From NCBI RefSeq assembly GCF_047555085.1, contig NZ_CP180230.1, forward strand, positions 630,001 to 662,000: 32,000 nt of DNA. Direction: 5' to 3'. The translations under genes and the position numbers were made by a program. Shown here one piece after another: positions 1 through 32,000 of this stretch (position 1 is the stretch's first letter; every line of letters starts with the position of its first letter). The notes under the pieces were generated by a model, which was not told the origin of the DNA, made no database searches, and was given only the letters and a program-made list of their open reading frames with translations. Source of the stretch: Candidatus Saccharimonadota bacterium. Its GTDB lineage: Archaea > Nanohalarchaeota > Nanosalinia > Nanosalinales > Nanosalinaceae.

Positions 1-91
1 CGACTACGCTCTCAAACCATACGAAGTAGCTGAAACTTACAGGTACGGTACGAGAGGCCGTGACCTGAGAAAACAACTGGTGAATCACTGA
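1..91 (+). CDS. 3' end of a LamG/ConA-like-fold protein (long-form paralog), truncated by the window edge
   Basis: Frame 2 reads DYALKPYEVAETYRYGTRGRDLRKQLVNH*. This matches the C-terminus of the 1220..2638 product (EIFELYRYGTRGRDLRKFLVTH*). Stop TGA 89-91 abuts ATG 92 of the next paralog. Confidence 0.7.
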   Translation, partial: DYALKPYEVAETYRYGTRGRDLRKQLVNH

Positions 92-778
92 ATGGTACTA
101 GTCGGATACTGGCCTCTAAACGAAACCTCCGGAACAACGGCATACGACGTCAGGAACGGAAACGATGGAACAGTCAACGGTGCCGGACCTGATGGAACAG
201 GTACTTCTTCAGGCCTGCTTAACTCCTCAGCGTACTCGTTTGATGGGACTGATGACTATGTGACTATGCCTCGTTCGAGGGAAGGTTTTCCGAAAAGCTA
301 TTCTGTATGGTTTAACCCGGGAGATGGTTCCGGATATCCTGCAGTACTACGTGATGATTACCATACTCAGGACGCTTACAGTGGAATAAGTATACAGTAT
401 AACGCTCCAGACACCTGGGCGCTACAGATAGGCGATGGCAGCGGATCAGGTTCCAGCCACAGAAAAAGTCACAAAGGAGGAGATTTAACTCTGGGAAACT
501 GGCATCACCTTGTTGCCGTGGCAAGAGGAGTAAACGATGTAGAACTCTACAAAAACGGTGTAAACGACTACAAAGGTGTTTCAGGAAGCGGGAGTTCAGT
601 TCAGTACATCGGCTCGAAAAACGTTATGGGATTCAGGCCCGCAGGAAGCTACTACACTCCAGGAAAAATACAGCATGTCAGAATCTACGACCACGCACTG
701 ACACCGCAGGAAGTACAGTACATGTATTCAGTCGGAAAAAATAGAGGCCTGCACATCTCCAGCGAAAAAACTCTGTAA
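92..778 (+). CDS. LamG/ConA-like lectin-fold protein, short form (228 aa), no signal peptide
   Basis: N-terminus is MVLVGYWPLNETSGTTAYD, followed by YSFDGTDDYV and WHHLV. C-terminal block is GKIQHVRIYDHALTPQEVQYMYSVGKNRGLH. This pattern is typical of Laminin_G_3-type domains and is shared with 5 other ORFs in the window. Confidence 0.85.
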   Translation: MVLVGYWPLNETSGTTAYDVRNGNDGTVNGAGPDGTGTSSGLLNSSAYSFDGTDDYVTMPRSREGFPKSYSVWFNPGDGSGYPAVLRDDYHTQDAYSGISIQYNAPDTWALQIGDGSGSGSSHRKSHKGGDLTLGNWHHLVAVARGVNDVELYKNGVNDYKGVSGSGSSVQYIGSKNVMGFRPAGSYYTPGKIQHVRIYDHALTPQEVQYMYSVGKNRGLHISSEKTL

Positions 779-804
779 AAAACTTCCGAAAGATAAATCC
801 CAGT

Positions 805-816
805 AAAAAATTTTTT
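805..816. terminator. A6T6 palindrome between convergent genes, putative bidirectional oligo-T terminator
   Basis: The sequence aaaaaatttttt lies directly after the gatC stop (817-819, minus) and 27 nt after the 92..778 stop. Archaeal RNAP is known to terminate at oligo-T tracts. Confidence 0.35.
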
Positions 817-1095
817 CTAGGCGCTTGGGCCTTTGAAGTATCCTTCTTCCTCGTTTTCCGTATTCTGGAAGACTTCTTCTTTTTCAAGAGTTTCCTCTTT
901 CTCATCGCTTCTTGTCGTCGAATCGACGTCCACAGGATGGAAAGATGGCTCAACATCTTCTGTATCAACTTCGTCAAGAGTCTCGAACATTCCCAGAATC
1001 TTATCGAATTCCTCTGAGAACTTCGAGGCCTCTTCATCTGAAAGATTGATCCTTGCGTTCTTCGCAACTTTCTGAACTTCTTTTTGATCTACCAT
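817..1095 (-). CDS. gatC: Asp/Glu-tRNA amidotransferase subunit C (GatC)
   Basis: 92 aa. The sequence VQKVAKNARINLSDEEASKFSEEFDKILGMFETLDEVDTEDVEPSFHP ... GYFKGP has the GatC family layout and length. Confidence 0.85.
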   Translation of the reverse strand: MVDQKEVQKVAKNARINLSDEEASKFSEEFDKILGMFETLDEVDTEDVEPSFHPVDVDSTTRSDEKEETLEKEEVFQNTENEEEGYFKGPSA

Positions 1096-1187
1096 ACTTC
1101 AGAACTGTAGACAAATTCTTTAGTAATCCACGGAGAGCCCAAAAAAATTTCCACAGGCCTCTGAAAAGTAATTTATTAGGAAGATTC

Positions 1188-1200
1188 AAATTAACTTATA
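1188..1200 (+). promoter_or_regulatory. TATA-like box for the 1220..2638 gene (leaderless geometry)
   Basis: The sequence aaattaacttata is centred about 26 nt upstream of ATG 1220. The same spacing is seen at 5523-5535 and 11736-11749. Confidence 0.4.
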
Positions 1201-1219: not shown

Positions 1220-2638
1220 ATGGCGATAAGATGGGATTCAGAAAGCGACTGGGAGAACAGTCAGGACAGTTCCGGTACAGTCGGCAGAAATGGAAATCTA
1301 CGGCAAGGATATTCAAGAGAAAAGCCTCCGCTTTCTCAAGGCCTTGTCGGATACTGGCCTCTACACGACGATTCGGCGACTGATTACTCAGGAAATAATA
1401 ATCATGGAACACTCAATGGCGGAGTCACGACAGGCATCGCTGGAAAAGCTGGTTTACAGGCGATGAGTTTTGATGGGAGCGATGATAGTATCGATATTCC
1501 TGATCAGCTTTTATCTAATGGCTCTTCTTTAACTCTTTCTTTCTGGTTCAAGGCCGATACACTAGGGAACGATGATCGTCCTGTGGCAATCAGCCAGAGC
1601 CATGAATGCCTTGCAAATATAGGTCGTTCAGGAACTAACGAGATTGGTGTTCGATGGAGAGCAGGAGACGGTAACGCGAGAGATTATGAATTCAAAACTA
1701 TTTCTACAGATACATGGCATCACTATGCAGTTACCTATGACAGTAGCTCAGGCGACTTGAAAGGCTATCTTAACTCAACAGAACAGCTGTATAAAGCCGG
1801 TATTGGTTCTTCAGGTATAAGTCAGGAATCGGCTATAGGGCAGAAAGGAGGTACAGGATATTTCAATGGAAAAATCTCAGACGTCCGTATATACAACCGT
1901 ACTCTATCCTTATCCGAAATAAATACGCTGTACGAATGGGGATCTGGCGACTATGCGAGGCCTCCAAACGACGGAACGGCATACTACAAGTTTGATGGTG
2001 ATGGCTCGGATTCATGGGGATCTAACTCAACGACTAACAGCGGTGTAGTCTTTTCCTCTGATTCTGTAAGAAATCAGTCAGGAGAGTTCCAGGCCTCGAA
2101 CAATGATCGCGTTGTGATAGATAACTCTGAGAGTAGCTCTCATCCTCTCAACGTCGGAAATCTTGCTGCATCTGATTTCACAGTATCTACATGGGTGAAG
2201 TTTGACTCATTCCCTAATACCAACAACGATATTATCGGAAGCTACGATGGAGCATGGTACATGCTGTGGTACAACACTGGTACAGGATTCAGATGGGGTG
2301 TAGACGACGGCTCAAACAAGATCACAGCCGACGGCGGCACAGCACAGACAGAAACATGGTACCACCTCACAGGCACGTACGACAGCTCCGAGAAGAAAGC
2401 AGAACTTTACCTTAACAGCTCCAAGATAGCTGAAGGATCAAACACAAGCTTCACCGCCACAGCTTCCTCAAATCCTGTTCACATAGGAGATGGAGGCTCA
2501 GGAAGAACCAGGCCTTTAAACGGACATATCGATGACTTGCGGATCTACGATAGAAAACTGAGGCCTGAAGAAATATTTGAACTCTATAGGTACGGCACCA
2601 GAGGCCGCGACTTGAGAAAGTTCCTGGTGACGCACTAG
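1220..2638 (+). CDS. Two-domain LamG/ConA-like-fold protein, long form (472 aa) with about 45-aa N-terminal extension
   Basis: The N-terminal extension is MAIRWDSESDWENSQDSSGT...QGY. LamG domain 1 runs LVGYWPLHDD...MSFDGSDDSI...WHHYAVTY...ISDVRIYNRTLSLSEINTLYEWG. LamG domain 2 runs AYYKFDGDG...WYHLTGTYD...IDDLRIYDRKLRPEEIFELYRYGTRGRDLRKFLVTH. Confidence 0.85.
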   Translation: MAIRWDSESDWENSQDSSGTVGRNGNLRQGYSREKPPLSQGLVGYWPLHDDSATDYSGNNNHGTLNGGVTTGIAGKAGLQAMSFDGSDDSIDIPDQLLSNGSSLTLSFWFKADTLGNDDRPVAISQSHECLANIGRSGTNEIGVRWRAGDGNARDYEFKTISTDTWHHYAVTYDSSSGDLKGYLNSTEQLYKAGIGSSGISQESAIGQKGGTGYFNGKISDVRIYNRTLSLSEINTLYEWGSGDYARPPNDGTAYYKFDGDGSDSWGSNSTTNSGVVFSSDSVRNQSGEFQASNNDRVVIDNSESSSHPLNVGNLAASDFTVSTWVKFDSFPNTNNDIIGSYDGAWYMLWYNTGTGFRWGVDDGSNKITADGGTAQTETWYHLTGTYDSSEKKAELYLNSSKIAEGSNTSFTATASSNPVHIGDGGSGRTRPLNGHIDDLRIYDRKLRPEEIFELYRYGTRGRDLRKFLVTH

Positions 2639-3052: not shown

Positions 3053-4120
3053 ATGGAATCTATAATAAACGACTCTGAAAACGACGGAAAAACCAGTCAA
3101 AATCTGGATGATGTAAAGGATGCAAGAATCCTTGTAGTGGGTGTTGGAGGAGCTGGTAATAACCAGGTTACTCGTATCCAGAACAAGGAGGTTGCAGGAG
3201 CTGAGACAGTTGCGATCAATACTGACAAGCAGCACCTGGAGATGTCATCCGCCGACAGAAAAATACTTGTCGGAAAAGACTTGACAAGAGGTCTTGGAGC
3301 TGGAGGAGAACCTGAGACAGGTGCTCGTTCAGCTGAAGAGAACAGGGCCGAACTAAGAAATCTTTTCAAAGAAGCTGACATGGTCTTCCTCACCGCAGGA
3401 ATGGGAGGAGGAACAGGAACAGGAGCAACACCAGTCCTCGCAGAAATCGCAAAGAAAGAAGACTGTATTGTGATCGGAACAGTAACAATGCCTTTCGAGA
3501 TCGAAGGAGCAAGAATGAGCAAGGCAGAAGAAGGCCTCTACAGACTGAGGAAGCACGTCGATACAGCGATCGTCATCGAAAACGACAAGCTACTTGACAT
3601 CGCAGGCGACATGCCTCTCGACCAGGCCTTCGGAGTCGCAGATGAACTGATCACTACAATGATCAAGGGAATCACAGAAACGATCAGCAAGCCAAGCCTT
3701 GTCAATCTGGATTACGCTGATGTCCAGGCAATTATGAATGAAGGAGGAGTCGCCGTAGTAGGATACGGTGAATCAGACACCTCCAACAAAGGAAGGGAAG
3801 CGATCCATGAAGCGCTCTCGAATCCGTTGCTTGACGTAGAGTTTGACGGAGCAAACGGAGCACTTCTGCACGTAGCAGGAGGAGAAGACCTGACACTGAA
3901 CGAGATCAACGACGTCGGTCAAAAAGTCACCGAAAAGCTGAACAAACAGGCACAGGTCATCTGGGGTGCAAGAATCAAGGACGACCTCAAAGGAAAGATG
4001 CAGGTCATCTCAATCATCACAGGCGTAAAATCACCTTACGTCCTTGGAGAACTGGATGAAGACGAAGAATCTGAAGTCACAGGCGACGTAGAGGACCTGG
4101 GACTGGAGATCGTCGAGTAG
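3053..4120 (+). CDS. ftsZ: Cell division GTPase FtsZ
   Basis: 355 aa. It has ILVVGVGGAGNN, the tubulin/FtsZ signature GMGGGTGTGATP and an acidic C-terminal tail. Confidence 0.95.
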   Translation: MESIINDSENDGKTSQNLDDVKDARILVVGVGGAGNNQVTRIQNKEVAGAETVAINTDKQHLEMSSADRKILVGKDLTRGLGAGGEPETGARSAEENRAELRNLFKEADMVFLTAGMGGGTGTGATPVLAEIAKKEDCIVIGTVTMPFEIEGARMSKAEEGLYRLRKHVDTAIVIENDKLLDIAGDMPLDQAFGVADELITTMIKGITETISKPSLVNLDYADVQAIMNEGGVAVVGYGESDTSNKGREAIHEALSNPLLDVEFDGANGALLHVAGGEDLTLNEINDVGQKVTEKLNKQAQVIWGARIKDDLKGKMQVISIITGVKSPYVLGELDEDEESEVTGDVEDLGLEIVE

Positions 4121-4210
4121 AAAAAAGCTTTCCACAAGCCGGATGCCGTAGAGGCCTCCGGGCAAAATCTATATTAGACGGTGGGATCTCTGTACACCGG
4201 GATGTTTTAA

Positions 4211-4229
4211 CCCCCTCCCCCTCCCCCCC
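4211..4229. repeat. C5-T-C5-T-C7 tract (G-rich on the minus strand)
   Basis: The sequence ccccctccccctccccccc is read directly. It is the only such tract in the window. GGGATCTC copies at 4183-4190 and 4246-4253 and a 6-bp inverted repeat tacacc/ggtgta (4193-4198 / 4239-4244) flank it. Confidence 0.9.
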
Positions 4230-4323
4230 TTATTCCTGGTGTATGGGGATCTCCCGCTAAACCTTTTTCTTTTAGACAAGTTTTTCCGAAATAACTATAA
4301 CATTAAACTAACAGAGTTGTCCT

Positions 4324-5451: not shown

Positions 5452-5522
5452 AACACAGGCCTTCCAAGAGGCCTCTCATTTTCCAATTTTTCTCTAAGAA
5501 ATTTTCTTCTGACACTCTGACA

Positions 5523-5535
5523 AATTATAAATTAG
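5523..5535 (+). promoter_or_regulatory. TATA-like box for the 5559..6215 gene
   Basis: The sequence aaattataaatta is centred about 30 nt upstream of ATG 5559. Confidence 0.45.
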
Positions 5536-5558
5536 TCCAAGGCCTAAAATCTGCATAA

Positions 5559-6215
5559 ATGACGCTTATCGGCTACTGGCCTCTCAACGAAAACTCGGGA
5601 TCAAAGGCCTACGATCATTCCGGAAATGAGAATCACGGAACTTTGAATGGTGGAGTTACACAGGGAACAACGGGCCTTCTGGCAGATACTGCGTACAGTT
5701 TCGATGGTTCTGATGATTACGTCAGTATAGCAGATAGTTCTGTTCTTGATGGCTCACCGATCTCTGCTACCGCATGGGTTAAAACCTCTGCAAGCGGAGA
5801 AAAAGTTATAGTTGCAAAGTTCAACTCATCCTCCCCCTATAATGGATACTGGTACGGACAGGGGAAAGATGGAGGTATCAGAGTATGTCTCGGATATGAC
5901 GGGCAGAAATGCTACGAAGTAAGTGATTTTCCTAACGATGGAAACTGGCACCAGATCTGCTTCACTTACGATAACTCAACTCTGAAAATATACCAGGATG
6001 GAAAACATATAGATTCAATATCAGAGACAACGGACGTGAAAGATACAGCAACAGACCTACAGATCGGATATGGACAGTGGGGAGTAGAAAACGAGTGGAA
6101 TGGAAAAATATCCGAAGTAAGAATCTATGACAGGCCTTTAACGAAAAGTGAAGTCCAGTACCTGTACAACGTCGGAAAAAGAGGCCTTCATACTACTTCC
6201 AGGAAAACTTCTTAG
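5559..6215 (+). CDS. LamG/ConA-like-fold protein, short form (218 aa), no signal peptide
   Basis: It reads MTLIGYWPLNENSGSKAYDHSGNENHGTLNGGVTQG...YSFDGSDDYV...WHQICFTYD...GKISEVRIYDRPLTKSEVQYLYNVGKRGLHTTSRKTS. Confidence 0.85.
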   Translation: MTLIGYWPLNENSGSKAYDHSGNENHGTLNGGVTQGTTGLLADTAYSFDGSDDYVSIADSSVLDGSPISATAWVKTSASGEKVIVAKFNSSSPYNGYWYGQGKDGGIRVCLGYDGQKCYEVSDFPNDGNWHQICFTYDNSTLKIYQDGKHIDSISETTDVKDTATDLQIGYGQWGVENEWNGKISEVRIYDRPLTKSEVQYLYNVGKRGLHTTSRKTS

Positions 6216-6281: not shown

Positions 6282-8072
6282 ATGAGTACTGGAAAAAATT
6301 CGAAGGATTTTATTGTAGTGGTGGATCAGGAGAAGATTGAGCCTGACTTGGCGCGTGAGACTGTGATTAATTTTGATCCGTTGAATCGTGCCGGGAAGGA
6401 TGGCGGATTTTATTTGACTGATAACGGCGAGCTGCACATCGACGATGAGCACGTTATGGAGGCTCACAAGATGGCTATCAACAAGTATCCGTACGACGGA
6501 GCTATCCAGATGATCCAGTTGCCTTTCGAGGAAGGAGAACGTATCCACCAGTTCAGCGAGAACAGTTTCCGGCTCTACGGACTTCCGACACCTGAAGAAG
6601 GCCGTGTTGTAGGCCTTATCGGGGAAAACGGAATCGGAAAATCTGTATCCCTGAAAATTCTCAGCGGCCAGATAAAGCCGAATCTGGGAGACTACGAGAA
6701 TCCTCCTGAATGGCAGGATATACTTGAGGAGTACCGTGGAACAGGCCTTCAGAAACATTTCGAGAAACTGGCTGAAGACGAGATAGAGTCTGCGTACAAG
6801 CCTCAGCAGGTTGAAAGATTGCCGGATGTGTACGACGGTGTTGTACGTGAGCTTCTGGAAAAAGTTGATGAGAGAGGCCTTCTGGAGGAAGTAGCTGAGA
6901 ATCTGGATATAAAGCAGTTGCTTGACAGGGAGCTTGAGCATCTCTCCGGTGGAGAGCTTCAGAGAGTTGCGATTGCGTCTACAGTCCTTAAAGACGTGGA
7001 TATCTACATGATCGACGAGCCATCGTCTTTCCTCGACGTGAAGCAGCGTCTTAACGCAGGACGCGAGATACAGGCCTTGGGCGAGGAAAAATCTGTTATG
7101 GCTGTTGAACACGATCTGGCTACTCTTGACTTGATTTCCAGCGGTGTACATATCTTCTACGGGGAGCCGGGCGGATATGGAATGGTTTCCAACATGTTTT
7201 CAACTAAAGAGGGAATAAATCAGTATCTTGACGGCTATCTGCCTTCTGAGAATATCCGTTTCCGTTCAAACAGTATAGAGTTTGATCGTACAAAGCGTTC
7301 TCAGGTGGAGCGAAAGCCTGTAGTCTTCGAGTTCCCGGAATTCGAAAAGGATTTTGGGGATGGAGAGTTCCAGGTCGAGGTTGAAGGCGGCAAAGTCCAC
7401 GACGAGGAAATACTTGCAATTTTCGGGGAAAACGGACTTGGAAAAACAGTTTTCGCAAAAATGCTGGCCGGAGCGATAGAGGCCGATAAAGGAGAGTCCC
7501 CGGACGTGGATATAAGCTACAAGCCACAGTACCTGGAGGCCCAGGATGAAACAGTAGAACAGGCCCTGAGAAAACACGTTAACATAGACAGTAAAAGATT
7601 TGAGAACCGTATCGGTGAGCCTCTAGGCCTTGAAGAGCTTTACGAGAGAAATCTTGAGGATTTATCTGGAGGAGAGTTACAGAAAGTTGGAATAGCGATC
7701 TGTCTGTGTAAAGACGCCGATATCTATCTTCTGGACGAGCCTTCTGCCTACCTTGATGTAGAGGCCCGTGTAAATCTGGCGAAGATGCTGAAGAGATTTG
7801 CCAGAAAGACGGAGAAGCCGCTCATGATTATCGACCACGACCTCCTGCTTCTTGACTATGTAGCGGACCGTGGAATGGTATTCAGCGGGGAGCCAGGAGT
7901 GGAGGGGAAGGCCTCTGAACCGGAGAAGATTGGAGATGCTATGGATCGATTCCTGGAGGATGTAGGCCTGACTTTCCGTAAAGATCCTGATACAGGGAGG
8001 CCTCGTGCCAACAAGCCTGGAAGCCAGAAGGATCAGGAGCAGAGGCATGAAGGCGACTTCTACGAGAAGTAG
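6282..8072 (+). CDS. abce1: ABCE1 / RNase L inhibitor-type ribosome-recycling ABC ATPase, with cysteine-free N-terminal domain
   Basis: 596 aa with twin ABC cassettes. Walker A motifs are GENGIGKS and GENGLGKT. Signature motifs are LSGGELQRV and LSGGELQKV. Walker B motifs are IYMIDEPS and IYLLDEPS. An N-terminal domain of about 75 aa is positioned like the ABCE1 FeS domain. Confidence 0.95.
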   Translation: MSTGKNSKDFIVVVDQEKIEPDLARETVINFDPLNRAGKDGGFYLTDNGELHIDDEHVMEAHKMAINKYPYDGAIQMIQLPFEEGERIHQFSENSFRLYGLPTPEEGRVVGLIGENGIGKSVSLKILSGQIKPNLGDYENPPEWQDILEEYRGTGLQKHFEKLAEDEIESAYKPQQVERLPDVYDGVVRELLEKVDERGLLEEVAENLDIKQLLDRELEHLSGGELQRVAIASTVLKDVDIYMIDEPSSFLDVKQRLNAGREIQALGEEKSVMAVEHDLATLDLISSGVHIFYGEPGGYGMVSNMFSTKEGINQYLDGYLPSENIRFRSNSIEFDRTKRSQVERKPVVFEFPEFEKDFGDGEFQVEVEGGKVHDEEILAIFGENGLGKTVFAKMLAGAIEADKGESPDVDISYKPQYLEAQDETVEQALRKHVNIDSKRFENRIGEPLGLEELYERNLEDLSGGELQKVGIAICLCKDADIYLLDEPSAYLDVEARVNLAKMLKRFARKTEKPLMIIDHDLLLLDYVADRGMVFSGEPGVEGKASEPEKIGDAMDRFLEDVGLTFRKDPDTGRPRANKPGSQKDQEQRHEGDFYEK

Positions 8073-8113: not shown

Positions 8114-9058
8114 ATGAACTTCCTTTCAAACGATAAATGGACTTCTGAAGAAATACCGGATCTTGAAGGTAAAAAAGTGATTGTAACAGGAGCTAATTCA
8201 GGCCTTGGATTTGAGGCCTCGAAGATGTTCGCAGCTAACAACGCACACGTCGTTATGGCGTGCAGAAGCCTTGAGAAAGGGAGAAAAGCGAGAGAAGAGA
8301 TAGAAGAAGATGTCGAGGAGGCCTCTCTCGAGGTGCGGAAAATAGATCTTGCATCTCTGCAATCAGTGAAGGATTTCGCAGAGGCATATCGTGCGAACAA
8401 CAGTGAGCTACATATTCTATGTAACAACGCCGGTGTAATGGCTATTCCACGTGACGAGACTGAGGATGGTTTCGAGATGCAGTTCGGTGTCAATCATCTC
8501 GGACATTTCGCATTGACAGGGCATCTGATTGATATTTTGCGTGATACAGACGGTGAGACGCGTGTTGTAACTCAGAGCTCCGGTCTGCATGAGAACGGGA
8601 CTATGAACTTTGATGACTTGATGATGGAGGATGAATACAACAAGTGGGATGCCTATGCCCAGTCGAAACTGGCTAACGTACTTTTCGGGTACGAGCTGGA
8701 TAGAAAACTGGAGGATGAAGACGTTGAATCTGTTGTATGCCATCCTGGCTACGCTGCCACGGATCTGCAGTACCGAGGACCTATCGCTGAAGGATCGAAG
8801 ACGAGATACTTCCTTATGAAAGCTATGAATACTGTAGTTGCACAGAGTGCCAGAAAAGGTGCTCTCCCATTGATGTATGCTGCTACCTCTGAGGATGCTG
8901 AAGGAGGGATGTATATAGGGCCTGGAGGCCTCGCAAACATGAGAGGATATCCTGTCGAACAGAAATCCTCTGAAGAATCCTACAGCAAAGATGCGGCAAA
9001 GGCTCTCTGGACGCGTTCAGAGGCCTTGACAGATATAGAGTTCGAGATAGGTGAGTGA
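8114..9058 (+). CDS. Short-chain dehydrogenase/reductase (SDR) family oxidoreductase
   Basis: It has the TGANSGLG (TGxxxGxG) cofactor motif, NNAG and the catalytic YAQSK (YxxxK). Confidence 0.85.
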   Translation: MNFLSNDKWTSEEIPDLEGKKVIVTGANSGLGFEASKMFAANNAHVVMACRSLEKGRKAREEIEEDVEEASLEVRKIDLASLQSVKDFAEAYRANNSELHILCNNAGVMAIPRDETEDGFEMQFGVNHLGHFALTGHLIDILRDTDGETRVVTQSSGLHENGTMNFDDLMMEDEYNKWDAYAQSKLANVLFGYELDRKLEDEDVESVVCHPGYAATDLQYRGPIAEGSKTRYFLMKAMNTVVAQSARKGALPLMYAATSEDAEGGMYIGPGGLANMRGYPVEQKSSEESYSKDAAKALWTRSEALTDIEFEIGE

Positions 9059-9449
9059 TATGAGCGAGATCCCTGTAGCCAAGGTTCTGATACAGAAAGA
9101 CGACGAATTCCTTGCAGTGAAGGACAATGACGGCTACTGGGAGCTTCCGGGCGGGAAAATCGAGGAAGATGAAGATCGTTTCGAGGCCTCCAGAAGAGAA
9201 GTAAAAGAGGAAGTTAATCTGGAGATCGAAGGCCTTGAAGATGTCGTCCGTGTAGAGGTCGAAGACATGGACTGCGTTAACTGCTGGATTATGCATACAG
9301 AGAAGTTTTCAGGAGATATAGATATCTTTGAAGACGAGCTGCAGGACTGGAGATGGGTGACGTTTACAGAGTATCGTGATATGAACTGGCACGCTGATTC
9401 GGGATACGCTATCCCAGCCATGCGTTTTCTGGAGGATTATCTGGATTGA
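9051..9449 (+). CDS. Nudix hydrolase
   Basis: The Nudix box is GGKIEEDEDRFEASRREVKEEVNL. A GTG at 9051 overlaps the SDR stop by 8 nt. An alternative ATG at 9060 lies 2 nt after that stop. Confidence 0.8.
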   Translation: MSDMSEIPVAKVLIQKDDEFLAVKDNDGYWELPGGKIEEDEDRFEASRREVKEEVNLEIEGLEDVVRVEVEDMDCVNCWIMHTEKFSGDIDIFEDELQDWRWVTFTEYRDMNWHADSGYAIPAMRFLEDYLD

Positions 9450-9489
9450 AGCGGAAAGCTGTTAAACGTTGAAGCCCAAAAAGTACTGG

Positions 9490-10155
9490 ATGAGTGCTGA
9501 ATCAGAGCCTATCGAACAGATAGTAGATCAGTATCCGCACAGGACACAAGAATCAGTTGAAACAGATCTGGACTCAAAGGCAATTCTTTCAAGATACCTT
9601 GATCATCAGGGAGTCAACGAATACGATTTTATTGAGTCAGATCACCCTTTCTATGCTGCACTCGGACGAGTAAAAGATTCAGAAGGCCAGCTAGTCCTCA
9701 CAAGCCATTACACATATCCTGACGATACAGATTTCTCTCAAGACCATACAAGAGCATCGCTAACAGTGGAGAAAATCGATGCAGCGCTTGAAGAAAATGT
9801 TATAGATGAAAACAGTATACTGGAGGCTTCTGGAGCGGAGATAATCGACAGCAAAAAGGCATCAACACTTAACGAAGATGAATTAAGGCCTGAAACAGTA
9901 CACTGCGTTGTATTCTACGACAGGCCTGTAGTCAGCGCCATAGAGGATACTGAATATGAAAGCACAGTCCATAAACAGGCAGCAATGCAGTCACTCAGCG
10001 AGCCTTCTCTCGCTACAGCAATAATACACTCAGGCAGGAACTCTTCAGGAGATGATTTTGCAGCAGCACAGATCGACTACTGGACACGCACCATGGACGG
10101 CATTAACGGAGGCCTTGACTATACAGAGCTTAACTGGGAGAATCCCGGATTTTAA
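9490..10155 (+). CDS. Hypothetical acidic protein
   Basis: The long ORF opens at 9469 with TTG, and the first ATG is at 9490 (MSAESEPIEQ...). Composition is acidic like the neighbouring genes. No motif recognised. Confidence 0.55.
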   Translation: MSAESEPIEQIVDQYPHRTQESVETDLDSKAILSRYLDHQGVNEYDFIESDHPFYAALGRVKDSEGQLVLTSHYTYPDDTDFSQDHTRASLTVEKIDAALEENVIDENSILEASGAEIIDSKKASTLNEDELRPETVHCVVFYDRPVVSAIEDTEYESTVHKQAAMQSLSEPSLATAIIHSGRNSSGDDFAAAQIDYWTRTMDGINGGLDYTELNWENPGF

Positions 10156-10172
10156 TCTTCAAAGAAGAAAAA

Positions 10173-10331
10173 TTAGATGTTTTGCTGACTAACGTACTTC
10201 GAATGATCGATCGAAGGATGATTGTTCCTGAAATGCTTCTCCAGCTCTGAAACATAGTCCATTCTGGAGGCCTCCTCGATCATTTTTCCACACCTTTCAC
10301 AGGTGAATTTATAGCTCATCTGAACCACCAT
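10173..10331 (-). CDS. Small (52 aa) zinc-finger-like micro-protein, below the ORF-track cutoff
   Basis: Hand translation gives MVVQMSYKFTCERCGKMIEEASRMDYVSELEKHFRNNHPSIDHSKYVSQQNI*. CxxC plus HxxxxH gives a C2H2-like ligand set. An AT-rich spacer lies upstream. Confidence 0.35.
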   Translation of the reverse strand: MVVQMSYKFTCERCGKMIEEASRMDYVSELEKHFRNNHPSIDHSKYVSQQNI

Positions 10332-10564
10332 AGCACATAATTACATACTGAATCTTATAAGATTAATGAACGATTATACTACCTTGAAAAATCAAATAGA
10401 GGCCTTAAATCTCTTTTAATCAAATAAAGGCTCTCTAAAATTATTTAATCCTATTAAAAATACTTTTTCAGATGTAAAGTTTCTGGAAAAAATTCTGGAG
10501 GGATTAGACTAATGCAGAAATTGTATCGAGTATAGAGAAAGAGATAGAGGGAAAATTGATGGAA

Positions 10565-11284
10565 CTAATCTTTCAAGACAAATTCTATCCTCTCCACGTC
10601 CGCGCCTTTACTTTTCCTGTCGACTATCTCCAGACCTCCGAGTTCTCCCGTCGAATCAACGTGAGTACCCCCACACGGACAGATATCAATATCTCCTATC
10701 TCCACAGCCCTGAGAGGATCAATGTGATCAGGTATCAGGTCAAGATTTGTTCTTCCGTCCTCAGTCTCTTTTTCCAGTTCGCTACGAGGCCTCTCACTTT
10801 TCTCCAGTTCTATATCGGCTTCGATTATCTCATTTGAAAGCTCCTCGATTTTCTCCAGATCCTTTTCATCGAAATCTGCTGGCTCGAAATCTATCCGACT
10901 TGAGTCTTCTCCCACCTGATTTCCTGCTGTAGAGGCCTCGTACTCCTCAAGTACGACTTTCGACACGATGTGCTGGGCGGTATGCATCTTCATATGACTG
11001 TATCTGCGTTCCCAGTCGATCTCCCCCTCAATTTTTTCTCCTTCCTCAGGCAGCGGGCCTTCGAGGTAGTGGCGTATTTCTCCCTGTCTTTTCTGCACAT
11101 CAGTGACTGAGGCCTCTTTATCTTTCCAGAAAATTTTTCCGTAATCAGCGGGCTGGCCTCCTCCCTCCTTGTAGAAAAGCGTTTTATCCAGTACGATATA
11201 TGAGGCCTCTTCATCGACTTTTTCGACTTCTGCCTCGAAACTTTTCTGGTACTCGTTATCGGGGCAGTACAGCAGTTCTGTCAT
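10565..11284 (-). CDS. alaX: Alanyl-tRNA editing protein AlaX (AlaXM-type trans-editing domain)
   Basis: It has HTAQHIVS (HxxxH) and CPCGGTHV (CxxxH) zinc motifs of the Ala/Thr-RS second additional domain. 239 aa. Confidence 0.85.
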   Translation of the reverse strand: MTELLYCPDNEYQKSFEAEVEKVDEEASYIVLDKTLFYKEGGGQPADYGKIFWKDKEASVTDVQKRQGEIRHYLEGPLPEEGEKIEGEIDWERRYSHMKMHTAQHIVSKVVLEEYEASTAGNQVGEDSSRIDFEPADFDEKDLEKIEELSNEIIEADIELEKSERPRSELEKETEDGRTNLDLIPDHIDPLRAVEIGDIDICPCGGTHVDSTGELGGLEIVDRKSKGADVERIEFVLKD

Positions 11285-11402
11285 GGAAAAGTTTTCTCGA
11301 GTTGAGAATTTAAACAGTTACTGTACAACCGGGACGTGATACTGTGAGAAAAATATAATAGGAAAATATGTGGTAAAAAATTCTAAGACTTTTTTTGGCT
11401 GC

Positions 11403-11594
11403 TTACTTCTCTGTGACGTTTACTGCTTCGGGACCTCTGTCGCCTTCTTCGGTCTCGAATTCCACTTCTGTGCCTTCTTCTACCTCTTCACCTTCTAGGT
11501 TACTGACGTGGAAAAAGACGTCATCATCTTCTTCTTCAGCTTCGATGAATCCGTATCCTTTCTTGTCGTGGAAAAACGTTACTGTTCCTTCCAT
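11403..11594 (-). CDS. Cold-shock domain protein (CspA family)
   Basis: 63 aa. It reads [19 protein letters not shown]...DVFFHVSNL, giving RNP1-like KGYGFI and RNP2-like VFFH motifs. Confidence 0.9.
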
Positions 11595-11603
11595 ACTCTA
11601 AAA

Positions 11604-11610
11604 CACCTCC
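11604..11610 (-). promoter_or_regulatory. Shine-Dalgarno-like GGAGGTG upstream of csp
   Basis: The minus strand reads caaGGAGGTGttttagagtATG, with a 9-nt spacer. It is complementary to the conserved CCUCC at the 16S 3' end. Confidence 0.4.
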
Positions 11611-13349: not shown

Positions 13350-13444
13350 AGTAGAGTTTTTCGGGAAATTAGTAGAAAAAGGTGTCGGAGCTTCAGCAGG
13401 CCTGAAAAATCCTTCATATAAATCTTCAATCCAAAAACAGTGAT

Positions 13445-14215: not shown

Positions 14216-14252
14216 AGAAAAAGCGGGAAAAGGCCTCGAACAAAGAAATTTT

Positions 14253-28543: not shown

Positions 28544-29281
28544 CTACTGCCACTCAAAACTTCTTCCCTCGAAACCATCCTCTATACGTACCTCGTCCTC
28601 TTCCTCAGAGGCCTCTACAGACTTTCCAGAACTCTTCTCATCTGAACTATCAGAACTGCCGGAATCCGAAGAATCCGTCAGGCCTCCCAATGAAAGCGGT
28701 GAATCACCTTCGATCTGTTCAGCTATCTTGTCGATGGCCTCTTTATCATCTCCAGAATTCCTGGAAGTATCTTTTTCTTCAGAGGCCTTTTCTTCTTCCT
28801 TGAATTTCTTTGAGTCAGGATGCGGCTCCTTTGTCGTCTCGCCGAAGCCTGAATCAACTGACGCCATCTTATCTTTTATCTCATCGAGATTTTTCTTCGC
28901 TTCTTCGTGAGGCTGGAAGATCGCTCCTGTAGGCGTACCGGAGCTTTCCTCGTCCTGAAAGCGCGGGAATACCTGTATGTATGCGTGCGGCACCATCTGG
29001 CCGGCAGCCTCTCCCATGTTCATCGTTACGGAGACGCCGTCGGCACCGAGGCCTTTCTTTGCCTTGTCAACGACTTTCCGTGTAAGATTCATCGCCTCCT
29101 GATACTCTGACGGAGAGAAACTTTCGATGGAATCCTTGTGTTCCTTGGGAACTATCATCGTGTATCCTTTCGCCCGTGGATTGATATCCAGCCAGGCGTA
29201 GAAGTTTTCCGTTTCTCCGACTACTTTCAACTGGCCGGGATTCGCGATCAACTGGCAGAAAGGACACTGTTTCTGAGGCAT
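28544..29281 (-). CDS. HIT-fold protein with degenerate histidine triad and long acidic low-complexity tail
   Basis: It has CPFCQLI, LDINPRAKGYTMIVPKEH and GQMVPHAYIQVFPR. HAYIQ sits where HxHxH is expected (codons at 28973-28987). The C-terminal region of about 110 aa is rich in S/D/E/K. Confidence 0.8.
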   Translation of the reverse strand: MPQKQCPFCQLIANPGQLKVVGETENFYAWLDINPRAKGYTMIVPKEHKDSIESFSPSEYQEAMNLTRKVVDKAKKGLGADGVSVTMNMGEAAGQMVPHAYIQVFPRFQDEESSGTPTGAIFQPHEEAKKNLDEIKDKMASVDSGFGETTKEPHPDSKKFKEEEKASEEKDTSRNSGDDKEAIDKIAEQIEGDSPLSLGGLTDSSDSGSSDSSDEKSSGKSVEASEEEDEVRIEDGFEGRSFEWQ

Positions 29282-29784: not shown

Positions 29785-29840
29785 AGCTTCAAAACAGCCA
29801 CCACATTTTCCCCTCATATTTTTTCTGCAAAAATACCTAT

Positions 29841-30458
29841 TCAACGTTCCAAGGCCTCAAAATAAAGCAAAAGGCTCGAGACAACTGTAAGAGCGAAAGC
29901 AACTGCAAAAACTATCGAGTAGAGGCCCTGTGCCTCAGGCAGCGAAGTATGCACGCCCAGAGAGTAATCAACCATATCATTAAGCAGGAAAAATCCTGCT
30001 GCAAGGCCTAAAACTTTCTTTTCTACATCGATATAGTCCAGAACAAGAAAGGCCTGTAGAAACATCCCCAGATGCGACAGAATCAGGAAAATATACATAG
30101 GAAGAGTATTGATCGCCATAAATTCAGTTCTGAACTGGAGAAGTACAAAGACTGTCCAGAGGCCGTACTTGATATTTCCTATAAACGCTAGAGCATGGAT
30201 AAGATTCTCTGCGTCTTCAGATAATCTTTCGAGGCCTCCAGAGAGTAAAATATACAGCGAAGCCGATAAAAGCAGTGTTGCTATCGGTGAATCAGCTATG
30301 AGAGGCCAGAGATAGAACTCTGTAGCGGATAACTGTGGAATATAGTAGTAGACTCCGAACAATGTTCCAGCAAGATTTACAGCGATCAGAATCTGCAGCA
30401 GAGGCCTTTTGAGCAGCGTCTCAGTTAATTTTTCCGGGATGGCCTCTGAAAGTCTCAT
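29841..30458 (-). CDS. Multi-pass membrane protein (DUF1405-like)
   Basis: It has 5-6 hydrophobic segments. NLAGTLFGVYYYIPQL resembles the DUF1405/YpjA N-terminal motif (from memory). I prefer ATG 30458 because the track start 30530 would overlap thiI by 59 nt. Confidence 0.65.
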   Translation of the reverse strand: MRLSEAIPEKLTETLLKRPLLQILIAVNLAGTLFGVYYYIPQLSATEFYLWPLIADSPIATLLLSASLYILLSGGLERLSEDAENLIHALAFIGNIKYGLWTVFVLLQFRTEFMAINTLPMYIFLILSHLGMFLQAFLVLDYIDVEKKVLGLAAGFFLLNDMVDYSLGVHTSLPEAQGLYSIVFAVAFALTVVSSLLLYFEALER

Positions 30459-30471
30459 AAGTAATTTGTCT

Positions 30472-31602
30472 CTAGATCTCTTCTTTTCTGGTGTTTTCCA
30501 GCGCTTTTTCCACAAGCTCATCGACGTCAATCCTGCGCTTCAGCTTCTCGAAATCTCCGTTTGACATCCTTGTAGCCGGGCTTTCCGGCGCCATCGTCCG
30601 GCACGCAGAATCTATCGAGGCCTCCTCAAAAGTTCCCAGTTCCCTGGCTTTCTCCGTTATCTCAGCTTTTCCACGAGTGAGCAAAGGCCTGTGAATCGGG
30701 AAATCTGTGGCAGAAGACGTGTTTCTCATGTTGGAGGAAGTCTGTGAAGATTTCTGCGAGAGGGCCTCGCCCGTCACGATCCCCTGCAGATTCTCCTGCT
30801 CAGCGATCTTTTCCGCTATCCCGAACATTATATACCGGTGAAGAAGCATTCTCCCACGGCCGATATCCATTAACTCCTCGTTTACTTCCTTCATGTCAAC
30901 GATATAGGCCTCCCAGTCTTTAGAGGGATGGAAACGCTTCAGTTTCTCAACTGAGGCCTTGAAACGCATCAGATGATCCTCTGCAGCAATAGGTCTGTTG
31001 TAGAAATATACAGGAGTTATATCAGAGCCTCGCTTCATTACTTCGTAAGCTGCAACAGGAGAATCTATGCCTCCGCTTATCAAAGCAGCCAGAGGATCTG
31101 CTGCACCGACAGGCATCCCTGAAGGACCTTCAAAAGTTTCTGTGTACATGAAAGCTTTCTCATCCCTTACATCAAACTTTATCCATGTCTCTGGATCATC
31201 AAGATCCACCTCTGCACCAGAAAAGTCCTGTACAAATGTGCCTACTTCTCTATTGACATCCATACTGCTGAAATCATGACTTCCAGAACGATTAGTATCT
31301 ATTCCGAAGCTTTCGCCGATTTCGACATCCTCGGCAGCATTTTTCAAGGCCTCGATCTCTGACTCAAGTTCTTTCACGGGAGAGGCTGATGCAACTCCCG
31401 GCAGCTCTGCTACAGCTTCTGAAGCTTCAGGCCTTGCGTTTTTTACAATTAAACGGCCCGGGATATCAGTAACAGAGTCGTATTCTTCATCTTCATACTC
31501 CAGTCGATCTTCTATCCTCTGTCTCAGGATCTTCACCATTCTTCCACGGACAGAAGCTGATTTAGTGCCGATATCTCCGTATCTTACAAGTATGTGATCC
31601 AT
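30472..31602 (-). CDS. thiI: tRNA 4-thiouridine synthase ThiI (THUMP + PP-loop ATPase, no rhodanese domain)
   Basis: The N-terminus is ILVRYGDIGTKS, the PP-loop is SGGIDSPVAA, and the size is 376 aa. Confidence 0.85.
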   Translation of the reverse strand: MDHILVRYGDIGTKSASVRGRMVKILRQRIEDRLEYEDEEYDSVTDIPGRLIVKNARPEASEAVAELPGVASASPVKELESEIEALKNAAEDVEIGESFGIDTNRSGSHDFSSMDVNREVGTFVQDFSGAEVDLDDPETWIKFDVRDEKAFMYTETFEGPSGMPVGAADPLAALISGGIDSPVAAYEVMKRGSDITPVYFYNRPIAAEDHLMRFKASVEKLKRFHPSKDWEAYIVDMKEVNEELMDIGRGRMLLHRYIMFGIAEKIAEQENLQGIVTGEALSQKSSQTSSNMRNTSSATDFPIHRPLLTRGKAEITEKARELGTFEEASIDSACRTMAPESPATRMSNGDFEKLKRRIDVDELVEKALENTRKEEI

Positions 31603-31650
31603 AGGCCTCTAGAATTGATTGCCAGAGAAAATTCAAAAACCTTGGATAAG

Positions 31651-32000
31651 TCAGGTGTATCCTTCCAGGACTTTCGTGTAATCCTTCAGAATTTTTCTTG
31701 AGGCCTCTCTTACTTCATCAACTTTTTCATCCGGGGCGTATACCCGTAGCGCCACGTTCCTCCACTCCGCATCAGTCAAAGCATCCGGAATCGGCGATAA
31801 CTCGCTAAGAGGCCTTATATCACCTTTTTTCTTGACTTTGACATCTATATCGCTGATGCCTGGTGTCGACGGTGTATGGATGATCACTTCATCAGGCCTG
31901 GTATCTGCCTCCTCCGCTATCTCTTTTTCAAGCTTCCTCGGCTTCTTGATACGCCGTTCAAGAGACTTCAGGGCCTCTTTTGGAACATCATCTATGTCCC
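31651..32000 (-). CDS. 3' part of a hypothetical protein; ORF stays open to the window edge
   Basis: The frame of the 31651..31887 ORF continues without a stop through 32000 (...DIDDVPKEALKSLERRIKKPRKLEKEIAEEADTRPDEVIIHTPSTPG...). No family recognised. Confidence 0.5.
   Translation of the reverse strand, partial: DIDDVPKEALKSLERRIKKPRKLEKEIAEEADTRPDEVIIHTPSTPGISDIDVKVKKKGDIRPLSELSPIPDALTDAEWRNVALRVYAPDEKVDEVREASRKILKDYTKVLEGYT

Follow-up and report, generated by a model that had tools for sequence, protein, structure and literature searches.

A lineage-specific AGGCCT signature in Nanohaloarchaeota, a possible archaeal counterpart of cyanobacterial HIP1

The DNA analysed here, a 32,000 bp stretch that we call the window, comes from the chromosome of a Nanosalina-like nanohaloarchaeon, a DPANN symbiont. 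Its 31 coding sequences (CDS) include ftsZ and the ABCE1/RLI gene, and the palindromic hexamer AGGCCT is scattered over its entire length (Table 1). An exact count yielded 152 copies, or one per 210 bp (4.75/kb), where the original prediction had estimated about 150. AGGCCT is the most frequent hexamer of the window, and the runner-up among palindromes, AAATTT, has 24 copies. At least one AGGCCT was found in 29 of the 31 CDS and in all seven confident spacers of 60 bp or more, in keeping with the prediction that nearly all genes and spacers carry the motif. Enrichment in spacers is approximately 50–100-fold and reaches approximately 100-fold in the 13 confident short non-coding spacers, which hold 10 copies in 835 bp against 0.094 expected. 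The copies do not sit at a set distance from gene starts, which argues against a promoter-type version of the regulatory role that had been proposed.

Table 1. AGGCCT copies (position of the first nucleotide) and other features of the window.
Feature	Position	Strand	Remarks
Dispersed AGGCCT palindrome, 152 copies	1..32000		Genome-wide signature, whole window affected
AGGCCT starts	211, 745, 1026, 1155, 1202, 1339, 1958, 2091, 2510, 2561, 2668, 2713, 3532, 3624, 4152, 4353, 4428, 4502, 4551, 4897		
AGGCCT starts	5457, 5469, 5540, 5605, 6132, 6182, 6230, 6611, 6743, 6875, 7072, 7625, 7909, 7964, 7998, 8200, 8214, 8319, 8926, 9021, 9184, 9230, 9886, 9922		
AGGCCT starts	10110, 10268, 10400, 10787, 10933, 11110, 11203, 11705, 12113, 12229, 12524, 12627, 12845, 13202, 13274, 13398, 13602, 13779, 13928, 14182, 14231, 14501, 14657, 14752, 14841, 14992		
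AGGCCT starts	15031, 15366, 15663, 15749, 15941, 16285, 16335, 16447, 16839, 16996, 17073, 17552, 17710, 17870, 18185, 18463, 18491, 18731, 18992, 19140, 19182, 19419, 19499, 19607, 19717, 19925		
AGGCCT starts	20006, 20095, 20403, 20924, 21112, 21219, 21385, 21487, 21752, 21799, 21982, 22509, 22809, 23103, 23287, 23605, 23663, 23839, 23868, 24032, 24179, 24776		
AGGCCT starts	25008, 25371, 25423, 25761, 26050, 26179, 26252, 26581, 27102, 27230, 27282, 27402, 27459, 28258, 28609, 28680, 28783, 29049, 29296, 29852		
AGGCCT starts	30004, 30050, 30232, 30402, 30618, 30685, 30906, 30954, 31347, 31429, 31603, 31701, 31810, 31894		
Phase nnA-GGC-CTn example, AGA GGC CTG (R-G-L)	743..751	+	LamG-like gene 92-778
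Phase AGG-CCT example (R-P)	1958..1963	+	LamG-like gene 1220-2638
Phase nAG-GCC-Tnn example, CAG GCC TCG (Q-A-S)	2090..2098	+	
ftsZ	3053..4120	+	2 AGGCCT sites; lowest density among larger genes
Short non-coding spacer, 3 AGGCCT (5457, 5469, 5540)	5452..5558		Among the 13 confident short spacers
ABCE1/RLI gene, second phylogenetic marker	6282..8072	+	8 AGGCCT sites
Divergent-promoter spacer, 1 AGGCCT (13398)	13350..13444		
37-bp spacer of convergent genes, 1 AGGCCT (14231)	14216..14252		

Base composition, for which the values quoted earlier were approximately correct, gives an expectation of 6.7 copies per window, within the 5–10 foreseen, and 100 dinucleotide shuffles contained 7.4 ± 2.9 (largest 19). 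The claimed excess of about 20-fold is real and even understated, with 152 copies against about 7. Markov models predict 25 copies at order 2 and 69 at order 3, while an order 4 null is trivially saturated because its 5-mers hold the AGGCCT signal. One-mismatch relatives are as scarce as had been described, with 0–18 copies each in the window. Shuffling synonymous codons, which retains both protein sequence and codon usage, left 17.1 ± 3.6 copies (maximum 30) in CDS where 123 are observed, a ratio nowhere near one; permuting whole codons left 8.0 ± 2.8.

The coding copies occur on both gene strands and in all three codon phases (20 as AGG-CCT, 51 as nAG-GCC-Tnn and 52 as nnA-GGC-CTn), so no single-phase codon pair explains them, and the three codon examples given earlier are correct and in frame. 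Together with the non-coding copies, this makes AGGCCT a DNA-level signal. The motif does coincide with common peptides (EAS, RGL, RP), as would be expected if it arose merely from codon usage, from amino-acid composition or from repeats of a dispersed family. That origin is refuted and has practically no chance of being correct: the excess persists under the codon-aware null, usage of the GGC and GCC codons is reduced rather than raised outside the motif, and enrichment is highest in non-coding spacers. The flanks are also close to random (no position exceeds 0.23 bits), and the sites are therefore not copies of a longer repeat.

To compare related genomes, we used ftsZ as the marker that places the window in Nanohaloarchaeota and fetched 45 comparison loci. 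Occupancy of permissive contexts per genome is bimodal, at 0.46–0.79 in carriers, including SG9 (CP012986) and M3_22 (CP046106), versus at most 0.20 in non-carriers. In the window, 20 of 23 Arg-Pro dipeptides are written AGG CCT, and AGGCCT fills 52 of 67 xGL and 51 of 66 [KQE]A[FLSYCW] contexts. Altogether 123 of 156 permissive synonymous contexts (79%) are occupied, compared with 6–9% in non-carrier relatives, corresponding to log-odds of 3.87. Peptides that permit the motif are in turn 1.6–2.4 times commoner than in non-carriers; the signal thus distorts peptide content, a bias that had been anticipated. Contexts left open are more often one transition away from AGGCCT in carriers than in non-carriers (66% versus 38%, p = 4e-8), which points to a balance of mutation and restoration.

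A phylogeny of FtsZ and ABCE1 showed at least three carrier clades, each with 100% bootstrap support, interleaved with about 30 non-carrier species. Monophyly of all carriers was recovered in 0 of 200 bootstrap replicates, and the trait flips between species approximately 90% identical in the two markers. One genome nested inside a carrier clade, L009, has an occupancy of 0.20 versus 0.62 in its sister L012. At approximately 80% saturation, sites common to carrier clades could be convergent, which makes a single origin with repeated loss inseparable from repeated gain. Among carriers, sites are positionally conserved: 82% of AGGCCT sites but 25% of control hexamers are shared between the window and L001, and 39–43% versus 12–17% with less closely related carriers. 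In non-carriers, conservation drops to 3% and sites decay like ordinary sequence; in L009, the rate of change at former sites equals that of the background. The motif is missing from foreign DNA: a recent insertion in gatC of L045 is nearly free of it, with one of seven contexts occupied versus 10 of 15 in the flanking core genes. Restriction–modification (RM) targets are normally avoided in genomes. The excess was correctly described as the opposite of such palindrome avoidance, as several sister lineages (L033, L007, L026 and L029) strongly avoid GGCC, a pattern compatible with restriction directed at GGCC in this phylum.

The pressure acts on the full hexamer and is nearly all-or-none. Perfect sites are used 11 times more in carriers than in non-carriers, whereas forced five-of-six sites gain only 1.4–1.7-fold and carriers use GGC and GCC codons less in the background. 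GGCC without a cognate flank is near background, with one it is 2–4-fold enriched and with both 20–40-fold, so the half-sites are cooperative. In M3_22, the asymmetric 5-mer AGGCC is enriched nearly as strongly as the hexamer, which sits awkwardly with a type II methyltransferase specific for the palindrome.

The sites show a weak, symmetric flank preference (T-A-R...Y-T-A) that reaches ±3 and is more pronounced in spacers than in genes. R is preferred at −1 and Y at +1, and the 152 sites include 33 copies of GAGGCCTC and 12 of CAGGCCTG. Pairs within approximately 40 bp are under-represented (37 versus 53 ± 4), and close neighbouring sites accompany unoccupied contexts twice as often. This deficit and the flank preference fit a bulky bound protein equally well as, or better than, a methyl mark. 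A lineage-specific, abundant dimeric nucleoid or chromatin protein, bound about every 200 bp at weakly selected sites, could account for both, for the cooperative half-sites and for the motif in all spacers of 60 bp or more; positional conservation was also the argument of Xu et al. for selection on HIP1 (PMC5861425). We nevertheless consider such a protein unlikely. The sites show no periodicity, whether helical or longer (global P = 0.13), five-of-six sites are rejected more sharply than is usual for architectural proteins, and repeated loss or gain among close relatives would be unusual for core chromatin. It would also require approximately 5,000 individually selected sites in a 1-Mb genome.

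The spacing of sites is slightly more even than random (CV 0.8), as might be expected of a self-DNA tag. If an import or recombination apparatus favoured AGGCCT-bearing fragments, motif alleles would be preferentially transmitted among conspecifics and accumulate without per-site selection. The uniform, weak and directional force on coding and non-coding DNA, with its distortion of the proteome, is as established for uptake sequences (USS/DUS), and both the M3_22 variant, resembling a lineage dialect, and the motif-free foreign DNA would fit. Sequence-specific DNA uptake is, however, not known from archaea. Known uptake sequences are non-palindromic and 9–12 nt long, a 6-mer offers little specificity, the density is about five times that of any of them, and the 40-bp interference scale lies far below the length of uptake fragments. 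A self tag therefore seems improbable to us, even though the leading idea for HIP1 is now a methylation-dependent role in transformation (bioRxiv 10.1101/2024.09.10.611283; 10.64898/2026.06.24.733823) and giant surface proteins of nanohaloarchaea contain VirB4/TraG-like ATPase domains (PMC10266531).

A Chi-like sequence, read by an AddAB-type helicase-nuclease and labelling self DNA during end resection, might explain why AGGCC is enriched by itself in M3_22, just as one would expect of a strand-read signal. Immediately upstream of the syntenic region, the closest relative (L043) has genes for a PDDEXK_1 protein and for a UvrD-helicase/PDDEXK protein. Asymmetry, strand skew and an enrichment of only a few-fold characterise known Chi sites, and AGGCCT shows no strand skew here, which makes this reading extremely unlikely.

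The original prediction had also offered very-short-patch repair, in which an AGGCCT m5C methyltransferase and a Vsr-like enzyme would turn T:G in near-cognate sites into C:G and thus create cognate sites. Dcm/Vsr with CCWGG is a precedent, as is archaeal Mig.MthI with the GGCC methylase M.MthTI, and the GGCC core is indeed essential. This model fails because the deamination neighbours are not depleted: observed/expected ratios were 1.12 (AGGCTT/AAGCCT) and 1.00 (AGGTCT/AGACCT) in carriers (168 kb of DNA), versus 1.04 and 1.15 in non-carriers (502 kb). Decayed sites showed no transition excess (0.70 versus 0.65 background), including at the cytosines, and no extra mutability of inner C/G relative to outer A/T positions was found. 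T:G repair should also be unable to yield the equally strong discrimination at A1/T6, and a flux argument would cap its effect at approximately 6-fold, against the 20–100-fold seen. We regard it as very unlikely. The earlier interpretation is supported as to a DNA-level signal that runs counter to palindrome avoidance, but not as to Vsr/Dcm-type repair in the form proposed or a regulatory site of promoter type. The lack of a deamination signature argues against unrepaired m5C, while m4C or efficient repair would escape this test. Searches for a methyltransferase, restriction enzyme, Vsr homologue or any further candidate reader came up empty both in the window and in approximately 700 kb of related loci, where absence means little at only about 20 kb per genome.

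Our tentative preference, held at somewhat less than even confidence, is that AGGCCT is a lineage-specific HIP-type signature kept by a losable, hexamer-specific trans-acting factor, most likely linked to a methyltransferase. That the factor acts in trans and can be lost we infer from the bimodal occupancy, the interleaved carrier clades and L009. A single factor would recognise the whole 6-bp duplex palindrome and discriminate as sharply as an enzyme; it may be an AGGCCT-specific DNA cytosine methyltransferase, orphan or in a StuI-type system, or else a reader of its mark. A methyltransferase gains plausibility from the methylated AGGCCT of Alcanivorax (PMC12128166), from the alternate HIPs of cyanobacteria described below (PMC4390886, PMC5861425) and from the GGCC avoidance of sister lineages. 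Each complete site would gain a small, uniform retention advantage over any non-site (log-odds approximately 3.9 in synonymous contexts, with a similar value implied by the spacer enrichment), presumably either because repair or recombination is biased or because the mark is selected for. Mutation, mainly transitions, would continually destroy sites that the bias restores, bringing the genome near saturation, first in spacers and synonymous positions and later in amino-acid sequence. Loss of the factor would leave sites to decay, and newly acquired DNA would begin without them.

In a tiny salt-loving symbiotic archaeon, AGGCCT thus fills almost every position that genes and spacers permit. Carriers are a subset of Nanohaloarchaeota, and by analogy their signature may be the archaeal counterpart of the long-unexplained HIP1 repeats. 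HIP-type signatures as a kind are already known in cyanobacteria; no archaeal report was found in the literature within reach of our search. Since the signature switches on and off between close relatives, genome comparison could reveal its cause.

Among known systems, enterobacterial Dcm/Vsr likewise raises a methylase-site palindrome, CCWGG, above expectation by repair bias, but its effect is small and T:G-derived neighbours are depleted, unlike at AGGCCT. Neisseria DUS and Pasteurellaceae USS resemble AGGCCT in being genome-wide, in all frames, proteome-distorting, roughly evenly spread and split into dialects, and molecular drive could explain both; their approximately 1/kb density and known competence receptor are, like their length and asymmetry, not shared by AGGCCT as far as known. 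In Alcanivorax borkumensis, AGGCCT is the target of a StuI-type (type II) RM system and nearly all genomic copies are methylated on both strands, yet they are spread almost at random and are not hyper-abundant (PMC12128166).

The closest likeness is to HIP1 (GCGATCGC; PMC5861425, PMC4390886). Both are short GC-rich palindromes, 15–300-fold over-represented in spacers and in all frames of genes, kept in position between related genomes beyond controls, with one-mismatch variants biased to outer positions; both are missing or replaced in some lineages. HIP1 is a cyanobacterial octamer at 0.2–2.7/kb and has a reported kb-scale periodicity, a scale beyond the reach of 32 kb (Xu, Lawrence and Durand 2018, PMC5861425; Elhai 2015, PMC4390886), whereas AGGCCT is a denser hexamer of an archaeal symbiont and, unlike HIP1, flips between species approximately 90% identical in FtsZ and ABCE1. 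Cyanobacterial alternate HIPs co-occur with cognate methyltransferases (PMC4390886), whereas that of AGGCCT is here presumed by analogy. One alternate HIP, CAGGCCTG of Synechococcus sp. PCC 6312, shares the AGGCCT core and is likewise in genome-wide excess (0.37/kb, observed/expected 14.7; PMC5861425). It is an octamer with C/G flanks rather than a preference for R and Y, and AGGCCT is approximately 13-fold denser here. Because the cyanobacterial phylum is unrelated, the nanohaloarchaeal signature has an origin independent of it.

An exact count found 152 copies of AGGCCT in the 32,000 bp of the window, a density of 4.75/kb, where base composition predicts 6.7 and 100 dinucleotide-preserving shuffles gave 7.4 ± 2.9 (maximum 19). 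The original prediction, which put the number at about 150 and the excess at about 20-fold from the sequence alone, was therefore accurate. Markov models raised the expectation to 25 at order 2 and 69 at order 3, while order 4 was uninformative because its 5-mers already hold the AGGCCT signal. AGGCCT is the most frequent hexamer in the window; the second palindrome, AAATTT, occurs 24 times, and the one-mismatch relatives of AGGCCT have 0–18 copies each. The A…T flanks are found on 152 of the 234 GGCC tetramers. At the other carrier loci, i.e., the FtsZ loci of related nanohaloarchaea in which AGGCCT is also hyper-abundant, the enrichment is 8-17-fold (about 20 kb per relative).

The 31 curated genes of the window contain 123 of the sites. 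Shuffling synonymous codons within genes, which preserves both the protein and its codon usage, left 17.1 ± 3.6 sites, and permuting whole codons left 8.0 ± 2.8, so the predicted excess also holds against a codon-aware null model. Sites were said to occur in all three codon phases, and they do (20, 51 and 52, in genes of either strand); the three codon examples offered with that claim are correct and in frame. GGC and GCC codons outside the motif are rarer in carriers than in their relatives, which together with the synonymous shuffle rules out a codon or peptide artefact. The highest enrichment was found in non-coding DNA, where 13 short, confident intergenic spacers (835 bp, 37.7% GC) contain 10 sites against 0.094 expected, and all seven confident spacers of at least 60 bp contain AGGCCT. 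A broader intergenic set has 29 sites in 4.1 kb; since some small genes without annotation fall within it (minus-strand gatC, for example), these values represent an upper bound on the count and a lower bound on the density. The enrichment of AGGCCT is real, strong and biologically meaningful.

Relative to genes, AGGCCT is rare in the first 30 nt and roughly twofold enriched in the 60 nt past stop codons, without a sharp peak. As the motif has no fixed position, a promoter or terminator element can be discarded, and the idea of a regulatory site, also raised in the original prediction, gains no support from where the sites lie. At the carrier loci, with gene starts crudely called, the first two 15-nt bins of coding sequences contain 3 sites where about 16 are typical. 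The flanks are weakly symmetric (T-A-R-AGGCCT-Y-T-A, with T avoided at −1), more so in spacers than in genes. They are otherwise nearly random, carrying no more than 0.23 bits at any position and none past ±4, which rules out a dispersed repeat of the REP or MITE kind.

We measured the trait as occupancy, the share of permissive peptide contexts (stretches that synonymous codons could encode as AGGCCT) that are so encoded, counting RP, [KQE]A[FLSYCW] and xGL, where x can end in A. In the window, 123 of 156 contexts are occupied (79%), compared to 6–9% in the non-carrier relatives, a log-odds of 3.87. A force of similar size follows from the spacers, which are roughly 50–100-fold enriched. Per 1000 residues, the window also has 1.6–2.4 times as many permissive contexts as non-carriers do, and protein sequences have therefore been shifted. 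Where the protein bars a perfect site, the best five-of-six matches are used at just 1.4–1.7 times the non-carrier level, against 11 times for perfect sites. GGCC tetramers with no cognate flank are near background, those with one are 2–4-fold enriched and those with both 20–40-fold, indicating cooperativity. Among the one-mismatch variants, outer ones (NGGCCT/AGGCCN) have observed/expected ratios (O/E) of 1.8-2.7 and inner ones of 0.5-1.3. Recognition of the hexamer is nearly all-or-none, and we infer a single force at the DNA level, moderate in scaled strength, that acts uniformly everywhere.

By its FtsZ, the window belongs to the Nanohaloarchaeota, close to Candidatus Nanosalina; the best match is 97% identical, and no record is fully identical. 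Its proteins are strongly acidic and include ftsZ, ABCE1, Met-, Cys- and Ile-tRNA synthetases, thiI, several Nudix hydrolases, Ham1, HIT and DHH among the housekeeping genes, as well as numerous LamG-like secreted proteins; searches of the window for tRNAs and Rfam families found none. At least six or seven of the secreted proteins are paralogues that have an N-terminal GYWPLNE-SG-AYD-SGN-HGT and a C-terminal R(I/L)YDR-L-E-LY in common. Their relatives are annotated as Laminin_G_3, and they form a large surface-protein family for 32 kb. Nucleotide-pool hydrolases are also unusually concentrated, comprising four NUDIX genes, one of which encodes two such domains, as well as Ham1/ITPase and HIT. 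Downstream of ftsZ lies a C-rich tract that is unusual for DNA of about 40% GC.

Features of the window and related loci, with coordinates or members and AGGCCT occupancy of permissive contexts
Feature	Sequence	Coordinates or members	Occupancy
Nucleotide-pool hydrolase genes (NUDIX, Ham1/ITPase, HIT)	Window	9051-9449, 19416-20228, 20221-20625, 20673-21185, 14253-14828, 28544-29281	
Secreted Laminin_G_3-like paralogues	Window	92-778, 1220-2638, 5559-6215, 14909-15721, 15718-16368, 16370-17029, tail 1-91	
C-rich tract ccccctccccctcccccccttattcc	Window	4225-4252, in spacer 4121-4323	
Carriers		Window, L043/L044, L001, L002, L006 (SG9, CP012986, complete genome), L012	0.46–0.79
Carriers, continued		L032, L008/L041, L011 (M3_22, complete genome), L016, L045	0.46–0.79
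Other nanohaloarchaea		About 30 species	<=0.20
Zero occupancy		L007, L033, L029	0/45, 0/56, 0/26 contexts
Possible specificity variant	L011 (M3_22)	CP046106.1: 423536-444612	
Insertion-like region	L045	3456-7489	
Duplicate of gatC 3' end (58 aa)	L045	3456-3629	
ORF between gatC copies (1068 aa)	L045	4004-7210	
Full gatC	L045	7211-7489	
AddAB-like pair	L043	1739-7079	
Siphovirus-like prophage	L098	IMGVR_UViG_2791354938_000002: 8150-20011	

Across the FtsZ loci of 42 species-level genomes and three assembly contigs, occupancy is bimodal, separating the carriers from all other nanohaloarchaea. In a two-gene FtsZ+ABCE1 tree, whose deep branches are weak, the groups {window, L001}, {L016, L012, L009} and {L008, L006, L002} each have 100% bootstrap support, and monophyly of all carriers was recovered in 0 of 200 replicates. 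L009 (B1-Br10_U2g21) lies inside a carrier clade with an occupancy of 0.20, compared to 0.62 in its sister L012 (PL-Br10_U2g27). The two are 89.7% identical in FtsZ+ABCE1, the same distance as between the window and L001, and the trait is therefore labile over short evolutionary time. This natural loss-or-gain pair is well suited for tracing the causal gene.

Several other observations concern these relatives. In the 21 kb of M3_22, AGGCCT is only about 10-fold enriched, and the asymmetric AGGCC/GGCCT is about 5-fold enriched even when the sixth base differs; the base after AGGCC is T in 51% of cases there, against 80-90% in other carriers, possibly a 'dialect' of specificity. Four non-carriers avoid GGCC, L033 most strongly (7 versus 50 expected, O/E 0.14), followed by L007 (0.38), L026 (0.45) and L029 (0.53), and in these four loci CCGG is not avoided. 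Such avoidance would fit HaeIII-type restriction pressure on part of the phylum, whereas other lineages hyper-accumulate a site containing GGCC. A contig titled 'MAG: Colwellia polaris' (JBLGBK010000009.1) has a nanohaloarchaeal FtsZ (86% identical) and synteny with the window, so this MAG is probably mislabelled or contaminated. In L043, the closest relative of the window, an AddAB-like pair directly upstream of the syntenic region consists of a PDDEXK_1 protein of 860 aa and a UvrD-helicase protein of 921 aa that also matches PDDEXK_1 weakly; such helicase-nuclease pairs are uncommon in archaea.

AGGCCT sites are conserved in place more often than control hexamers, in 82% versus 25% of cases for L001, 43% versus 17% for SG9 and 39% versus 12% for L012. 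At orthologous positions, non-carriers have AGGCCT in just 3%, the differences lying mainly at synonymous third positions. Because saturation is near 80%, carrier clades probably share part of their sites by convergence. Of the permissive contexts without AGGCCT, 66% in carriers and 38% in non-carriers are one transition away from it (p = 4×10⁻⁸), which fits ongoing mutational loss of sites balanced by restoration.

Among the mechanisms put forward in the original prediction was a very-short-patch repair of the Vsr/Dcm type, under which deamination neighbours of the motif should be depleted. No such depletion was found in 168 kb of carrier sequence, where O/E is 1.12 for AGGCTT/AAGCCT and 1.00 for AGGTCT/AGACCT (1.04 and 1.15, respectively, in 502 kb of non-carriers). 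In L009, the core positions of former sites have diverged from L012 at a rate matching the background, and they show no excess of transitions (0.70 versus 0.65 in the background, p = 0.56), and the inner C/G positions of unoccupied contexts show no excess over the outer A/T. The signature of deamination and repair is thus negative in the neighbour spectrum, in the decay from L012 to L009 and in the unoccupied contexts. Moreover, T:G repair is unable to explain why A1 and T6 are required equally strongly, and by a flux argument it would limit enrichment to a few-fold. With neighbours undepleted and no transition excess at cytosines, we reject this mechanism.

One carrier locus, L045, contains a region that resembles an insertion, with a duplicate of the gatC 3′ end on one side and the full gatC on the other. 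The long ORF between them matches no Pfam family, lacks a homologue in the window and in the other 44 nanohaloarchaeal loci, and looks like an insertion into the gatC 3′ end. Its occupancy is 1/7 compared to 10/15 in the flanking core genes (p = 0.06), and its frequency of permissive contexts is like that of non-carriers. This insert suggests that new DNA arrives without AGGCCT.

For the gaps between sites in the window, the coefficient of variation is 0.8. The raw gap histograms suggested a peak at 46–53 bp and an oscillation of about 20 bp, but neither was significant when occupancy was permuted among permissive contexts, and this null revealed no significant short-range periodicity (global P = 0.13). 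A modest deficit of gaps below 40 bp did survive it (37 versus 53 ± 4 expected), and a site lies within 40 bp of 21% of unoccupied but 10% of occupied contexts. A nucleoid-protein binding site is a viable but rather unlikely reading of AGGCCT.

Pfam searches with 20 window proteins returned housekeeping genes only. Regular-expression and tblastn searches for methyltransferase and Vsr motifs in the window and the 45 loci, which cover less than 2% of each genome, found none; in these roughly 700 kb, tblastn with approximate E. coli Vsr and M.HaeIII queries gave nothing below E = 0.6. Gene-trait association across the local loci was likewise not significant. AGGCCT does not behave like the target of an active type II restriction system, being 20-fold enriched rather than avoided. 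Among the matches listed by a scan of viral contigs for AGGCCT-dense DNA there was no nanohaloarchaeal virus; they consisted of chance matches, tandem repeats and a single prophage from an unrelated Firmicute. The latter, the siphovirus-like L098 (GC 0.43), has 26 AGGCCT sites in several genes against about 2 expected, and its terminase shares about 52% identity with Lactobacillus phage terminases. AGGCCT hyper-abundance may thus also exist in an unrelated Firmicute.

Our tentative explanation, which we favour while giving it somewhat less than an even chance, is a losable trans-acting factor that would be specific for the full hexamer and probably linked to a methyltransferase. Under this factor, complete sites would be retained slightly better than other sequences, to the same degree everywhere, and mutation would balance this bias.

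Few genome signatures have gone unexplained for longer than hyper-abundant palindromes; HIP1, the highly iterated palindrome (HIP) of cyanobacteria, has been known since the 1990s. Its mechanism is debated, with biased repair, nucleoid structure and DNA uptake all proposed, and to our knowledge 30 years of work have not identified its causal gene. In AGGCCT, a DPANN archaeon has a signature of the HIP type, a hexamer with the highest density reported and natural on/off variation, and the HIP phenomenon is thus not confined to cyanobacteria. The bolder claim is rather doubtful, namely that this is the first archaeal HIP system and the densest known, with an origin independent of HIP1 and switched on or off between species about 90% identical in core proteins; if true, phylogenetic profiling of carriers against non-carriers could reveal a HIP-type causal gene. 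On that reading, the motif may mark self DNA in an obligate ectosymbiont, telling its DNA from that of the host during DNA import, repair or defence. On, off and intermediate states exist naturally in dozens of sequenced relatives, including two complete carrier genomes, the decaying L009 and the possible specificity variant M3_22, which makes the cause of HIP tractable by comparative genomics and methylomes. The force is directly measurable, with a log-odds of about 4, and strong enough to shift the proteome. In practice, AGGCCT skews k-mer binning, codon models and peptide composition in nanohaloarchaeal metagenome-assembled genomes, and it could serve as a lineage marker through StuI digestion or methylation calling.

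No earlier account of AGGCCT enrichment in nanohaloarchaea turned up in our literature search. The SG9 genome paper is silent on it (bioRxiv 10.1101/029934), and GDGCHC is the sole methylation motif that we found in the nanohaloarchaeal literature (PMC10266531, PMC11001535). In Alcanivorax, AGGCCT is a bona fide restriction-modification (RM) and methylation target (PMC12128166). An uptake or recombination tag is likewise a viable but rather unlikely reading: DUS/USS are asymmetric sequences of 9-12 nt that occur at about 1/kb and have a competence receptor, unlike the 6-bp palindrome of the window at 4.75/kb. HIP1 is 15–300-fold enriched at 0.2–2.7/kb and conserved between genomes, with its one-mismatch variants skewed to the outer bases, and in some cyanobacterial strains other palindromes replace it, with a cognate methyltransferase present (PMC5861425, PMC4390886). 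One alternate HIP, CAGGCCTG of Synechococcus PCC 6312 (0.37/kb, O/E 14.7; PMC5861425), has the AGGCCT core in common with the window motif. Like HIP, AGGCCT is over-represented in all frames and in spacers, conserved in position and biased towards outer variants.
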